A stretch of 62,919 nucleotides of DNA, filler included, from Bipalium vagum (Eukaryota), in assembly GCA_037834085.1 (NCBI GenBank). It is 3 parts of 3 records of this genome, joined end to end, with 100 filler letters (N's around TTAATTAATTAA, not from the genome) between each part and the next. Parts side by side here need not be neighbours in the genome. Positions count along the whole stretch, not along the records: positions 1 to 22,033 come from JBBMKC010228094.1; 2 more parts are not named here. The stretch is one strand, 5' to 3'. Below the pieces are notes generated by a model. That model worked only from the letters and a program-made list of their open reading frames with translations. It had not been told where the DNA came from and ran no database searches. Positions within the stretch are counted from its first letter, which is position 1. Each line of letters begins with the position of its first letter. The position numbers and the translations under genes were made by a program. Below are positions 1-50,130 of this stretch, one piece after another.

Positions 1-226
1 TTATATTTGATCTCTTTTGAGAATAATAATAATAATAAATTTATCTAACGTATTCAGAGCAAATACTCTGCAGTACGCCTTTTTAATAATTTTCCTATTT
101 CTTTTGTTTGTTCTCTTGACAATTTGATTCTGCTTTGCTCTAGGCGACAGAATACGTATTTTTGACATCGGGGCTTCTTCGGTTATCATAAAACCAAGAA
201 GACATTAATTAATTAATTGATATTAT

Positions 227-456
227 TGTAACTATGATAGAAAGATTTGTAATTGTATTACAAAATATATTTTTGTTAACAAAAAACGTGTCATTTTAGT
301 TAATTTAATTAAACTTAGTTCGTATCTATTTGTACCTATTTGTTACACTACCTTTGACGTAGTTGGTTAGCCCAGTTCTAACTTATATCAATAAAGTTAG
401 CATTTTTATATTTTCGAGATTAGATCTCGCAGTAAGTGTCGCATCAAACACTTACA
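227..456 (+). mobile_element. 5' LTR of a Gypsy-type retrotransposon (~230 bp; start could alternatively be 248)
   Basis: Begins TGTAA and ends TTACA (inverted termini), AATAAA at ~390, followed after 2 nt by a primer-binding site and gag. Confidence 0.7.
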
Positions 457-458
457 TT

Positions 459-476
459 TGGTGAGCCCGACGTGAT
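459..476 (+). promoter_or_regulatory. Primer-binding site complementary to tRNA-Trp 3' end
   Basis: TGGTGAGCCCGACGTGAT is 17/18 identical to the canonical tRNA-Trp PBS TGGTGACCCCGACGTGAT; lies 2 nt after the LTR terminal CA. Confidence 0.85.
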
Positions 477-483
477 CATAAAA

Positions 484-2157
484 ATGGGTGAAGAACGAAC
501 TAAAGTTCCAGTATTTAATGGAAATCCAGTAGATTTCCCAGAATTCACATCCGAGTACTATCTCACAATGAAAGCATTGGGGAAGACGGATGAGCAGATG
601 ATGACACGATTACCACTGTCCCTTAGAGGACAAGTGCAGGCTTTGGCTGATCACGAGGCTGCAGTAGCCCTCAACAGCTGAATGAAGGCCCGAATGCAGT
701 GGTACAGCCATACAAACTAATTACCTTTAAAGAGATATTAAAGGAATTAGAATTAAAAGTTCTCACAGGTGATGTGAGCAGATTATTAAGGAATAAAATT
801 TATGAGCTAAAACAGCGTCATAATGAACGTGTAGTAGAATACACGTATCAATTAAATTTATTGACCGAAAGAGCCTTCAGACTAAAATCAAATTGGCCCG
901 CAACTACGACAGTGATCGTAAAGGATCAATGGTGGGCAGGATTAATCCCAGCCACTAGATCTCAATTAGTATTATTTGGCACAGAACCAATGGATCAACT
1001 GGCACATAAGGCCACGATAGTAGAAGAAAGTCTAGAAACAAAACCAGTTTTAACTACTACGGTATCTCATAAAAAAACATGCAGTAATTGCAACCGAATA
1101 GGGCATTCTGCTGAACTTGTCTTTTCAAATCCAGAAATAGCAATAATAATGGTAGCAATAATAATAATAGCAGTAATAATAATAATGATCGAAATAATTA
1201 TAATAATAATAATTATGAAAATAATCTTCAGAAAAGAAGTTCTGTAAGAAATAATGAAAAATCAAAAGCAGAAGTATGTCAGAAATGTGGTAAATCAAAT
1301 CATAACTCAAAAAATTGCTTTTTAACCAATCTTCATTGTCAGAATTGTGGAAGAGATGGGCATTTACAAAAGGTTTGCTGGCGGACGCAGAGAAACCCCA
1401 GAGAGGATGCATCCAGACGAACCACAGTAAATTCAGAGGGTAAAATCCAATGTCACCTATGTGGGATATATGGACATTTAGCCCGAAATTGCACAAAAAC
1501 TAGAAAAAAGGAAAATGAATCAAAAACTCATCTCACCTCAAAAATGGATGAAGAATTTTTTGAAGAAGACAATGGATATGAGTTATATTTAGAGTCACTT
1601 TTGCAAGAGGAGCGTAGGAAAAACGCCCGAAAATCAAACGATGGTAAAATATCGTCCACTATATCGAAATCGTCTAGTCCAAGAGAAGACTCAGAAGACA
1701 TACCTGCACTAGTATTATCAGCAGAGGAAAAATTGAAAAAATAGTTATCAGAACCAATTAATATTGAAAATAGTAATGAAATTTTTACCACACTAAGAGA
1801 CCCTTGTATTAGCAAAAAGCAAAAAGAAATACTGTCAGTTTTAAGAAAATTGGGAACTGAGCAGCAAAAACAATATAAGGCGTTGCAATAAATTGCTCCT
1901 TATTGTGAATTTACTCGTTCTAGTATGTTCGAAGTAAAATTAAAATGGCCCGAAGGTGGTATAACGACAACAATAATGCATCCTTTAATGGATATTGGTG
2001 AGTTTGTACGAGATGTACAAGCCATGTGCTCAGAGCAAAATTAAAAGTTGATATAACTTACTTTACTGAACCATTATTGGAAGATAAAAATCCAATATAA
2101 AACGGTCTATTAGATGGATGGGATAATATTCGTATAAACCCGAAGAGGTGCTCATGA
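484..2157 (+). pseudogene. gag: Degenerate retrotransposon Gag with four CCHC zinc knuckles, acidic linker and C-terminal ubiquitin-like segment
   Basis: ATG at 484; VPVFNGNPVDFPEF..LPLSLRG capsid-like start; LKQRHNERVVEY major-homology-like motif; knuckles CSNCNRIGHSAE(x)C, CQKCGKSNHNSKNC, CQNCGRDGHLQKVC, CHLCGIYGHLARNC; frameshifts near 670, 1117 and 2040; in-frame stops at 1742, ~1890 and 2098. Confidence 0.85.
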
Positions 2158-2859
2158 ATGAAAATTTATTTTATTTTGAAAATATATAAAAATATATAAA
2201 GATTTTAAAATTCATTTTATATTCTTCATTAAAAAATTTCATATATGTAAATATATCTTTTGTGTTATTATTGTAAAGTAATAATTATTAATTCAACTTT
2301 TATTATAAAAAATAAAATTTCAGAACTGATTAAAGTTATGTAAGTTTGTTTATATGCATTATTTTAAGGTAATATAAAATGGATATTGTCTAAGTAAACT
2401 AAAACAGTTTCCATTTTTCAACAATTTTCGGTATTAATGGCTGTGAAGTAGTGTTTTTATGGTTTGAGAATTCTTTTCGATAAGAAAGTATTCCAACTAC
2501 TTGTTTTATAACTGCAGAAAATTATTTGAGGACAAATTATTTCTGAAGGAATAAAAACAAAAGGATATAAATCATAGTAAGGATATTCGACAAAACAACA
2601 TTTTACTGTGAACCAGGTAAATGTAATTTTAATATTTGTGTTCTATTTTTTATGAAAACAAGTAGTAGATATTTATATATTCACTTGAAATAATTATAAA
2701 TTTTTCTTCTGCGCGATGTCTTTTATTTTCGACTTATTTTTAAATATTTTATTTGTATTTTGTCTCAGGATGAAAATTAATAATTATAGCCCTGAAACTA
2801 ATATTAATAACAATTCTGAATTTTTATTGATCATTTATGGTTCTAATGAAGTAAAGTTC

Positions 2860-3610
2860 GCTTGGTATGCAACAAAAACGATAAAAAACCGATTTGTTAC
2901 ACGCTTATTTTGTTTCCGAGACATTGAGAACCGTTGTAGAAACCAATATATCAAACAGTATAAGCAAAATACCTGCAGGCGTTAGTGCTTTTAAAGAAAC
3001 TACATGGAGACATTTTCATAATCTGCGCTTAACCAATAAGACTTATGGAAGTTTTCCTCAAGAATTAATATCGAAACAGACAAATAGGCGATTGAATATT
3101 TTAAGTTAACAATTGCAAGATCCTCAAAGTTTTCTTCCTAAAAAGAATTGTGACTTGTGACGAAAATGGGATTTACTAGTAAAATTGACTTGACAAAGCA
3201 ATGGATTCAGAAAGACCTCTCTGCAAAGCAAGTCCCAATAAGAATCCGCTTCGATAAAGTGTGCGTTCGTGGAATTATGAAGACTTATTTTATTTCGAAA
3301 TTCATATTTATATTTTCAACAAATCGCTAGAATGTAAGCGCTTCTGTACCAACGATATAAAGCATAAAAAAGTTAAGAGTTATTTTTTATTAAGATAATG
3401 TTAGGCTGTTGTAGAAAAACAAAAATGAACAGTCTAGATATTGAAATCCTATCACATTCAGCTTATCGTTCCGATATCAGCTTGCATCTATTTCAATCAA
3501 TGTCTAAATTTTTGAAAGGAAGTAAATTACTAGATCTTACTGATACTATAAAAACATGTGACAAATTCTTTGTATTGCTAAAAGATGGCATATTATTTAC
3601 AGTATAGAAT
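2860..3610 (+). mobile_element. Degenerate mariner transposase remnant
   Basis: RIVTCDE(K)W-like motif ~3145; EILSHSAYRSDIS (HPPYSPDL-like) and LFQSMSKFLKG; many stops and frameshifts. Confidence 0.8.
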
Positions 3611-3677
3611 TCTTATCATCTTATTTAAAATTAATATTAAAACTAGAATACAATGCATTTTTTGAAGCCATCTAGAT

Positions 3678-3953
3678 CAGTGGCCTTCAACCTTCTTTTA
3701 GCCTAACGTCCACTTTTGCTACATTCCCATCTATAAAAAAAAATCTGTAGTCCATCCAAACTTTGAAAAACTTATTAAAATCCAAATAATGTTTATTGAC
3801 AAAAGAGAATTCAATATCTAGAACTAGTATAGTTGAAAGAGTTAATGAGACCCCTGTGCTTGATGTTTCGATGCCAAGGAATTCTTCCTAACGCCTACCA
3901 AATATTTCATAATGCCCACTAGTGGGCGATATCGCCCAGGTTAAAGGCCACTG
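3678..3953. mobile_element. hAT (Charlie/Buster-like) MITE, 276 bp
   Basis: TIRs CAGTGGCCTTCAACCT / AGGTTAAAGGCCACTG; 8-bp TSD ATCTAGAT / ATTTAGAT (7/8). Confidence 0.9.
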
Positions 3954-3968
3954 ATTTAGATAAATTAA

Positions 3969-3971
<3 letters not shown>

Positions 3972-4001
<30 letters not shown>
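3972..4001. repeat. (AT)n microsatellite
   Basis: Perfect dinucleotide run. Confidence 0.95.
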
Positions 4002-11785: not shown

Positions 11786-12190
11786 TGGTGCACTCGTGAG
11801 ATCGAACGGCATTTTATTAAACTCAAATAACCCTTTATTTGTTACAAAAGCAGTTATTGCTTTTGACTCTTCCTCTATCTCAATGTTGAGGTATCCACTT
11901 CATAGATTGATCGTACTGAATATAGTAGATCGTCCTAATGCATCATACATCTCGTCAATAAGTGGTAAAGGATAGTTATCCTTTATTGTTACCTCGTTTA
12001 TTTTGCGGAAATCAATACATAGTCGCCATTCTAAACCTTTCTTTTTTACTAATAACATCTGGTTTTTGGTCATTGGCTTTTTTTCTATGTGATTATTAGT
12101 TATGTAGTTGTTTTTCAAAACTGTATAAATTCATCTTTAATTGGAATTGGTATGTTATTAAATTTTACATAGGTTTTTTAAAAAAACATT
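11786..12190 (-). mobile_element. pol: Ty3/Gypsy reverse transcriptase fragment (domains 1-4)
   Basis: LLVKKKGLEWRLCIDFRKINEVTIKDNYPLPLIDEMYDAL..IFSTINL*SGY..ITAFVTNKGLFEFNKMPFDLTSAP. Confidence 0.95.
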
Positions 12191-23400: not shown

Positions 23401-23856
23401 AAGTACGATTAATATCTGTAAAAATGTTTATTTTCAATATTTTTGATACTTCCAAATATTTTTATTTTAAATAAAAGAAATTCAATAATTTTTCAAGAAT
23501 TATTTTAATTTAAAATAAAATAAATTAATTTTTTCAGAATTAATTTTATTAGAAACATTATTAATTTTTCTTTTCCAGATTTAATTTATTGATTTATATA
23601 ATGATGGAAAAATGTTCACAAATCTAGAAATTTTTTTTTTTAATTGAAAATTAAATTAACAAAAAAAACATTAATTGATTATAGACATTTTTTTGGTTTT
23701 GAGCGAAATCGAGATTTTGAAGACCTTTTCAGTGCAGAGCTTGGATGGATGAGTTTGCATGAATGTAATTTCTGACTATAAGATATATTAATCATAACGG
23801 AATTTCTTTTTTGACAAATAAACATTGACAAAAATTTAGTCTTTTGTTGTTTTCAG

Positions 23857-24021
23857 TATTAGAAGAACTCTCAGTGAAAACAATCCTGTCAAAATTCGGT
23901 CGAACTGGTTTATCGAAGGCATCGTTCGAGAAGAAGGGGTCGCTATGTTACGCAATAAACCACACGGGACGTTCCTGATCAGAAAAAGCAAAGAGCATAA
24001 TAAATATGCGCTGGATATTGT
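23857..24021 (+). CDS. PIK3R: PI3K regulatory subunit p85-like, penultimate exon (first half of C-terminal SH2)
   Basis: tttcAG acceptor, GTaata donor; IRRTLSENNPVKIRSNWFIEGIVREEGVAMLRNKPHGTFLIRKSKEHNKYALDI(V) with the FLVR-type motif. Confidence 0.9.
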
Positions 24022-24384
24022 GTAATACTTTTCATTCTGTACCTTTTTACTGGGAACTGGGCGGGGTTAGGAACGAAATTGAAATTGGATTTTGCTTTTG
24101 TAATAGCATGAATGATTCAATTTAGTACATAAATTTAGCACAATAGTTTTAATGGAACATAATAGTTGCAATTTGAAACTTGGAAGTACTGTTTTAATTT
24201 TTTGATTAAACGTTTTTAACTTATTTCAATATTGGAACCTCCATAAAAAAGTTTAAAGTTACCGTTTTATGCAAATCATTTATTGATCTGATTTTTCAGT
24301 CGAAAACTACTTCCTATTTTTTATTCATGATTTATGGATTATTTGTTTAAAATATTGATGTTGAATTCTTCAAATTCAAGGGAC

Positions 24385-48238: not shown

Positions 48239-48835
48239 ATGTCAAATCTTTCTGAGGATAAAATTTTTATTATTACTGAATTATGAAAGGTTGTTGGTCA
48301 AAATGGGAAACATGGAACCCGAATATGCCAATGAAATATTTATGCCAATCTTTCAATGTTAACAAAAACCATGCCAGATAATTGCTGGATTAGTTTTTAA
48401 ACGTGGTACGTTGGATAGGAAGCAAGGATCTGGAAGAAATTATATTGAAAATTATGAAGAGCGGCGAGCAGCAGTGTCAGCAACAATTCGTAAACGCTGG
48501 TCTAGTACCATCTCCGATATTTGAAATGCGACTCAAATCCCCAGTAGTAGCGTACAAAAAATTGTTGTAGCTGAACAATTTAGACTGGTCAATAAGAAAA
48601 TATGCCCTCTAATAACAGATGCTCAGAAAGAAAAAAGACTGAAGTGCTGCCAACAACACCAGAATAACACATGGGACGCATGGATGGATATTGATGAAAA
48701 ATGGGTCCAGCTACATTTGTTCAATCTCGAAAGTTATCGTGACAGAAGCCCCAGAAAGAAAGTTCCTGTAATAAGCAAGATAAATATCCCAAAAATAATG
48801 GTACTAATCGTTGTTACGAAACCGAATAAAGTTAT
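48239..48835 (+). mobile_element. DD39D ('plant mariner')-like transposase, N-terminal half
   Basis: RKQGSGR; PLITDAQKEKRLKCC; WMDIDEKWV; SKINIPKIMVLIVVTKP (cf. HIDEKWF..sK.fIpKvMfl.avarP). Confidence 0.7.
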
Positions 48836-50130
48836 ATATGTTATCGAAAAATATTTTAAACAATGGAAGGGCATTCTAAAAAGAATGGTGAATAAATATT
48901 TGATTAACGTTTTTTACATATGTCAAAGTGAACGATAATTTCCCAATCAAATAAAATTTCAATTTGAAAACAATATTATTCAATGCAAAGCTGTTTTTTT
49001 TTATAAAAAGTACTTAAATTAAATCTCCAAAATGTAATGAAAAAATATTTTTTGAATATTATAATTTTTTTGTGAAAAAAAAATTTCTGCTGAATTCAAA
49101 ATCGTTTGTGATTTTTCAGTAATTAATATAATTATAATTTATTATCAGATTTATTTTCCTTTTTATTATTTTTAAAATTTTTTTATAAACACAAACATTG
49201 ACTCAAAATTTATTTCATAATCATTTTGGAGCTTTCACTTAAATTTGGCATGGAATAATAATATCGAAATCAATTTTATACACTCTTGATCAATATTTTA
49301 TTATTTCTCTCAAAAGTTTTTGATTTATATCTTTATAGAGTGTTACGAGTTAAAAGAAAACGATTTGATATGGGATGAATAAATGATGGAATAGTTAAGA
49401 AATCATCATGAAACCTATAAAAAAATCGAAAAGTTTATATTAATCATTAAAAAGGGGAAACTGTGTCAAAAATTAAAAAATGTCCTCACGCCATCTTTCT
49501 GTGATTTATATCAATTTCGCTAATGAATTAATTTTTGCCAAGTTTAACAGAAAAAAGTCAAAAATCTTATTTTTTTTCTAAAGTATCGAAATTAATTTGA
49601 CCTAGCTTCTTTGGAATTAAATTTATAATTATTGTTTAAATCGTAATTAATGATTTTATAATGATTTTTTGAGAAAATTGATTAGAACCATATCGAATGA
49701 TTTGTGACATATGAATCTGTGGCATAAAATTAAAATTCTCAGATATGGTTTCCTATGATGTATATTTCCTTTCTTTTACAGATATTTTCAACCAATGAAA
49801 TACCTGCATTTTTCTTTATATAATGATTTGTTGAAAAATGTAATTTTTCTTAAAAATAATAAATCTTTAATGTTAAAAAGTCTGGTTATGATTTATTAGA
49901 CTAATTACCTTAATTATTGATTTAACAAAAAGCTTATAAGGATAAGAATTAATAATGCAAGTTTTAGAAAATTATTAAATTAAATTGACACAAAAATCGA
50001 AAATAAAATGAACTATTTTTTCGTTTTAGTATTTATTTTTCATAATAAAATAATTCAAAGAATTTTATTTTGAAAATCAGATCAAATTAAATATTTACTT
50101 AGTTTGAATAAAATTTAAAATCATTTAATA

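Follow-up and report, generated by a model that had tools for sequence, protein, structure and literature searches.

The window, by which is meant the whole stretch of 62,919 nucleotides (filler included) from Bipalium vagum that was analysed, is AT-rich eukaryotic DNA with a GC content of 16-34% per 2 kb. Its positions 1-2149 are occupied by an LTR retrotransposon copy, in which the LTR, a tRNA primer-binding site (PBS) and gag stand in the order that marks Ty3/gypsy elements (Table 1).

Table 1. Parts of the retrotransposon copy in the window, with positions counted along the whole stretch
Feature	Position	Strand	Remarks
5' LTR, 3' part	1..456	+	runs off the window start; terminal CA
PBS, tRNA-Trp-like	459..476	+	18-mer
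Gag capsid region	484..1115	+	ATG 484; frameshift at about 650-680
CCHC knuckle 1	from 1080	+	split where the frame shifts, near 1112-1118
Asn-rich tract and CCHC knuckles 2-4	1118..1500	+	complete knuckles at 1277, 1337 and 1451
Acidic/Ser linker and helical unit ahead of the ubiquitin-like domain	1501..1924	+	stops 1742-1744 and 1889-1891; aligns with P0001 aa ~385-430
Predicted ubiquitin-fold (beta-grasp) domain	1925..2130	+	frameshift near 2041; stop 2098-2100; indel break near 2125-2129
Last element-derived bases	2131..2149	+	3' breakpoint of the window copy at 2149

Sibling contigs were taken from three public runs containing part of the stretch and were compared with the window over 1-4000 and 1900-2300. 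In run X1, the contig depth, which was summed as a sign of repetition only and gives no copy number, was about 1e5 over most of 1-456 and between 700 and 4,300 in the internal part, and behind 456 a total of 58 contigs diverged into varied flanks in the manner of solo LTRs. No second LTR copy was found within the window. In the coding region of the window copy, the frame is broken at four or more places and three stops lie in frame, and the stops at 1742, 1889 and 2098 are absent from most of the sibling depth. The window copy is thus one of many copies of a repeated LTR element, is decayed, and as a dead fragment makes no protein in which Gag is joined to the ubiquitin-like domain (UBL).

The gag start codon, the Asn-rich tract and the three further CCHC knuckles were found as the initial annotation had given them, and its total of four knuckles was reached with three full ones and a first one cut by a frameshift; the two frameshifts in gag were missing from it. 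The Gag pieces were matched by Retrotrans_gag of Pfam with an E value of 8.8e-4, a match that falls short of the curated cutoff, and the knuckles by zf-CCHC with an E value of 3.6e-8 over three stretches. The identities of the Gag pieces to P0001, the protein of the intact relative described below, were 52% to aa 8-55 and 37% to aa 71-213, respectively. The frame that was said to be open from 1118 to 1925 is interrupted by the two stops of the linker, and the peptide from ATG 1925, with its frameshift (placed at ~2040) and its stop at 2098, was recovered on translation as described.

The UBL segment of the window gave no match when searched by itself: zero were obtained for the peptide in Pfam, PDB, the Atlas (none usable) and the protein library, no Pfam match was obtained for pieces of 1892-2154, the protein searches with window pieces returned 0 matches among 354 and 498 candidates and 0 in the 1.84-billion library, and the peptide-pattern search of metagenome contigs with window pieces returned none. 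The pieces 1745-2038, 1925-2038 and 2041-2124 were aligned in order to P0001, with 0, 8 and 0 per 1000 shuffles, respectively, reaching the score. Among the 11 single-base differences listed between copies in the segment (a list that is not the full alignment and from which six rows at breaks were left out), 8 were synonymous as compared to 3.2 expected (P=0.0015), and in either other frame 2 of the 11 were synonymous. This excess of synonymous differences in the UBL frame indicates that the frame was under selection.

Over 1900-2300, the siblings are set apart from the window by indels, one near 2041 and one near 2125-2129. At 2149, the match ends in one contig of each of the three runs, the contigs continuing for 34, 43 and 94 nt further, respectively, and the GC content falls from 35% to 17%. 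A single-depth contig of run X1 (depth ~22, unique flank) was identical to the window over 2085-3725. Because the siblings and the window are out of register from the indel at about 2125-2129 and part at 2149, the terminal residues of the window and the stop at 2155-2157, at which the segment had been taken to end, are not those of the family. No protease, RT or integrase was found downstream on the plus strand of the window. Since the siblings continue past 2149, and neither a second LTR nor pol follows, the lack of pol is an effect of the breakpoint.

An intact relative and the predicted fold of its ubiquitin-like modules

A scan of metagenome contigs with the PBS yielded 37 loci, with one true relative among them, L022, which matched the window Gag pieces and carries the identical 18-mer ahead of its gag. 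PBS scans that gave 13 loci from viral sequences and 25 from prokaryote genomes brought up two weak RT matches and no relative besides, and no relative was found in viral contigs. In L022, the ORF extends over 2,664 codons until the locus ends; the complete protein, P0001, has 3181 aa in a single ORF. Its order is Gag, four CCHC knuckles (found by pattern), two units of a helix and a UBL, a weak BCL2-like candidate, a fusion glycoprotein and PR-RT-RH-IN. The Pfam scan, which covered aa 1-2664, gave in order zf-CCHC, a weak UBX, Monjiviricetes_fusion (E 8e-91), gag-asp_proteas, RVT_1, RT_RNaseH and rve.

The window was collinear with P0001 over 502-2130 and aa 8-495, respectively, with identities of 52, 37, 26 and 39%, the value of 26% being that of the region from the knuckles to the UBL and marking a distant relative. 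The unit of helix and UBL is doubled in P0001 (aa ~345-500 and ~512-678; 0 of 1000 shuffles reached the score), and the window segment corresponds to module 1. The pol order PR-RT-RH-IN is present in L022 and absent from the window copy, which ends at 2149; the mononegavirus-type env, which lies in frame between gag and pol in P0001, would fall past the breakpoint. The initial annotation was correct in finding no pol after the segment in the window copy; a lack of pol from the element was not supported, as P0001 has a full pol in the same ORF. Its placing of the UBL at the C-terminus did not hold, as the window copy breaks at 2149 and P0001 continues into a second UBL, the envelope glycoprotein and pol. 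Whether intact copies join Gag, four knuckles and the UBL in one ORF with pol behind, a point it had left for checking, is answered by P0001 in the affirmative for a relative. Because the window copy ends at 2149 and is compared with one distant relative, the second module, env and pol of its family are inferred from P0001, and this family presumably continues beyond 2149 as P0001 does.

For the assignment of the fold, a profile was built from the two P0001 modules and two window pieces as separate rows. Against PDB, it matched 12 sequences at E<=10, all 12 being of ubiquitin fold (best E 7.6e-4). AlphaFold was applied to module 1 of P0001, the counterpart of 1925-2130, and not to the broken peptide of the window; the model had a pLDDT of 83 and the order b-b-a-b-b. 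The top Foldseek rows were SUMO1 (first), redesigned ubiquitin and ISG15, with TM values of 0.78-0.86, and VIA gave a Z of 12.3 and an rmsd of 1.6 over 74 residues, with the rows of SUMO, ISG15, Rad23, BAG6 and UBX nearly tied. The ubiquitin-like fold proposed for the segment was thus borne out, and the analysis supports a ubiquitin-fold domain in the window, in frame behind Gag and four knuckles, as predicted from the model of the relative's counterpart.

UBX domains have an FPR-type loop motif. The P0001 module shares the beta-grasp with SUMO1/2, ISG15, the UBLs of Rad23, Dsk2 and BAG6 and UBX domains (TM ~0.8, Z 11-12), has 8-26% identity to them, and differs from them in having neither a diGly nor an FPR motif; the latter was absent from both UBL modules. 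With the structure rows tied in Z, the domain can be named by its fold and not by a subfamily. Module 2 scanned alone was matched by Pfam UBX at 22.3 bits as compared to the cutoff of 21, over 33 residues only, and module 1 had no match. The GG by which conjugatable ubiquitin-like modifiers are recognized does not follow either UBL of P0001, and no diGly was found in the window frame, as the initial annotation had stated.

Motifs like BH1 and BH2 were seen at 5338-5730 of L022 on the minus strand (P0001 aa 755-885), directly ahead of the signal-like stretch of Env. When the stretch from module 2 to Env, which was picked by eye, was searched against PDB, all three matches at E<=10 were Bcl-xL, at non-significant E values of 1.5-1.8, and in another search of the BCL2-like stretch Bcl-xL was found at E 2.1 among 4 matches. 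The Bcl-2 family had no Pfam match in P0001, the Atlas search with the stretch returned generic helical clusters only, and the single-sequence model of aa 365-890 was unusable (pLDDT 36.5). A BCL2-like domain ahead of Env is accordingly kept as a weak candidate from sequence motifs. The search with the accessory region of P0001 found only itself among 7,795 candidates (cluster of 2). For a dUTPase-like domain, no Pfam or PDB match was obtained in the spacer of ~110 aa between PR and RT.

Past the L022 edge, at aa ~2840-3181, about 340 residues follow the integrase in P0001. They include hydrophobic stretches at 2847, 2890 and 3126-3165, and this part of the ORF resembles a further membrane protein.

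Comparison with Burro and possible role of the domain

The planarian Burro (GYPSM1) elements are giant gypsy elements with one ORF of 4,873-5,140 aa, in the order retrotrans_gag, two or three CCHC knuckles, a Ubi2/SUMO-like domain, a BCL2-like motif, env, PR, a dUTPase-like domain and RT (PMC6431247). Their env is in frame and related to mononegavirus fusion proteins, their Ubi2/SUMO-like domain was reported from a profile match, they carry BIR, MATH and ankyrin domains, and decayed Burro fragments were described in another planarian (PMC6431247). The architecture had been regarded as undescribed in Gypsy Gags, and this has to be withdrawn, as a Ubi2/SUMO-like domain stands behind Gag and CCHC in Burro. 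P0001 and Burro both have Retrotrans_gag with several CCHC knuckles, a UBL between Gag and env (SUMO1 being the top Foldseek row for P0001), a mononegavirus-type fusion glycoprotein and PR-RT-RH-IN in one ORF. P0001 differs in its size of 3181 aa, in its four knuckles and in its two modules of helix and UBL, and MATH, BIR and ankyrin had no Pfam match in its aa 1-2664. Because of the smaller size and the lack of these three domains, P0001 and the window element were filed as Burro-like and not as Burro.

GAG-ENV-POL Ty3/gypsy errantiviruses of Nematoda, Bryozoa and Platyhelminthes share with P0001, in the available part of PMC13524379, an env between gag and pol and a glycoprotein of class III type. 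The words 'ubiquitin', 'UBX' and 'Bcl' do not occur in the main text of that source as available; in the accessible rows of its table, the Trp_CCA 12-mer differs by one base from the first 12 nt of the window PBS, and no element has the exact PBS 10-mer of the window. According to the available part of PMC13465017, which cites a 2026 study, Burro1 occurs in both freshwater and land planarians and counteracts apoptosis, and a benefit of its anti-apoptotic region for the regeneration of planarians is reported. The accessible portions of PMC8532177 and PMC5408684 added nothing on the UBL. Titles on gag with a ubiquitin-like or UBX domain gave no precedent; descriptions of compact Burro elements or of their UBL may exist, including in supplements.

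The window contains a decayed LTR retrotransposon copy with Gag followed in frame by the predicted UBL, cut at 2149, whose intact form was likely a Burro-like Ty3/gypsy element with a single Gag-accessory-Env-Pol polyprotein, and this reading is given with good confidence. The copying enzymes are likely absent from the window copy alone, because the intact relative has them. The window fragment led to an intact and much smaller relative, whose accessory block is cut down to a pair of UBL modules and possibly a BCL2-like domain; the fold model of P0001 gives structural support for a domain known in Burro from a profile match, and purifying selection on the UBL is shown in a second family.

As for function, a UBL that is internal and has no diGly would not be conjugatable, and it may act as a non-covalent dock or decoy in an accessory block between the nucleocapsid and Env. 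The hydrophobic stretch at aa 881-905 of P0001 would be the internal signal of Env, by which Gag, both UBLs and the BCL2-like region would be left in the cytosol; together with the hydrophobic stretch at aa 1448, it would place Env in the lumen, and the flanking parts, Gag and the accessory block on one side and Pol on the other, would be cytosolic. Signal peptidase and the protease of the element could then cut the chain and release the pieces, and the accessory block could bind host proteins of the ubiquitin, SUMO or p97 pathways and damp cell death, as was proposed for Burro. A docking or decoy role towards host proteins is put forward tentatively, and is the most likely one when compared to that of a processing spacer. 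The initial annotation had suggested that the domain may engage ESCRT, the proteasome or p97. If the reported anti-apoptotic region of Burro1, as given in the available part of PMC13465017, is considered, a compact form without BIR makes the role of the UBL easier to study.

In gypsy elements, a single ORF needs some means of setting the Gag:Pol ratios. The UBL might serve the element itself, either as a folding or solubility spacer or as a handle for cleavage or degradation by which the amount of Gag relative to Env and Pol is set, and its internal position, its duplication in P0001 and its lack of both diGly and the FPR loop motif of UBX would suit such a role. However, the block is shared with the BCL2-like candidate, and Burro has BIR, MATH and ankyrin domains, which argues for host control; we regard service to the element as unlikely, and as less likely than the dock or decoy.

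A wider proposal is given lower credence and treated as speculative: a compact Burro-like enveloped lineage, possibly outside planarians, in which tandem helix and UBL/UBX modules would bring in p97 or the proteasome for the processing of a Gag-Env-Pol that spans the membrane, the Env signal would double as the tail anchor of the BCL2-like domain, and the whole would be a minimal core of the host-control cargo of Burro.

That the window's family is non-autonomous, with Gag and the UBL block only and with Env and Pol supplied by an autonomous partner, is an account close to the initial annotation and would agree with the absence of pol behind the segment, with the fall of the summed depth of run X1 beyond ~2125 and with the family's own sequence being known up to 2149. 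The depth drop, however, coincides with an indel private to the window copy, the siblings run past 2149 with other sequence instead of ending at the annotated stop, no 3' LTR is found in the window, and P0001 is autonomous in its layout, so that this account is judged improbable. A chance likeness to ubiquitin, the segment being a common spacer or the beginning of pol, could appeal to the window pieces having no matches by themselves, but is largely refuted by the 12 of 12 profile matches and the confident ubiquitin-fold model, and by the P0001 protease motif lying ~1,180 residues beyond the UBL, and hardly any credence is left to it.

Other features of the window

At 11789-12058 on the minus strand, an isolated fragment of a gypsy-type RT with one stop was found (59% identity to the RT of P0001; RVT_1 E 4.7e-10), which may derive from a related element. 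It was considered as the pol of the window copy and rejected, as it lies on the opposite strand and 9.6 kb away. At 3670-3961 lies a short, MITE-like repeat of raised depth, the terminal inverted repeats of which agree in 22 of 25 bases. The region 2880-3600 had no Pfam match and is presumably, by its motif, a decayed Tc1/mariner-like remnant, and another such remnant, with HTH_Tnp_Tc3_2 at E 0.0024, was found at 48525-48935. An SH2-domain exon at 23840-24022 on the plus strand (E 1.2e-7) was the sole host-gene signal among the 82 of 151 short ORFs that were scanned.
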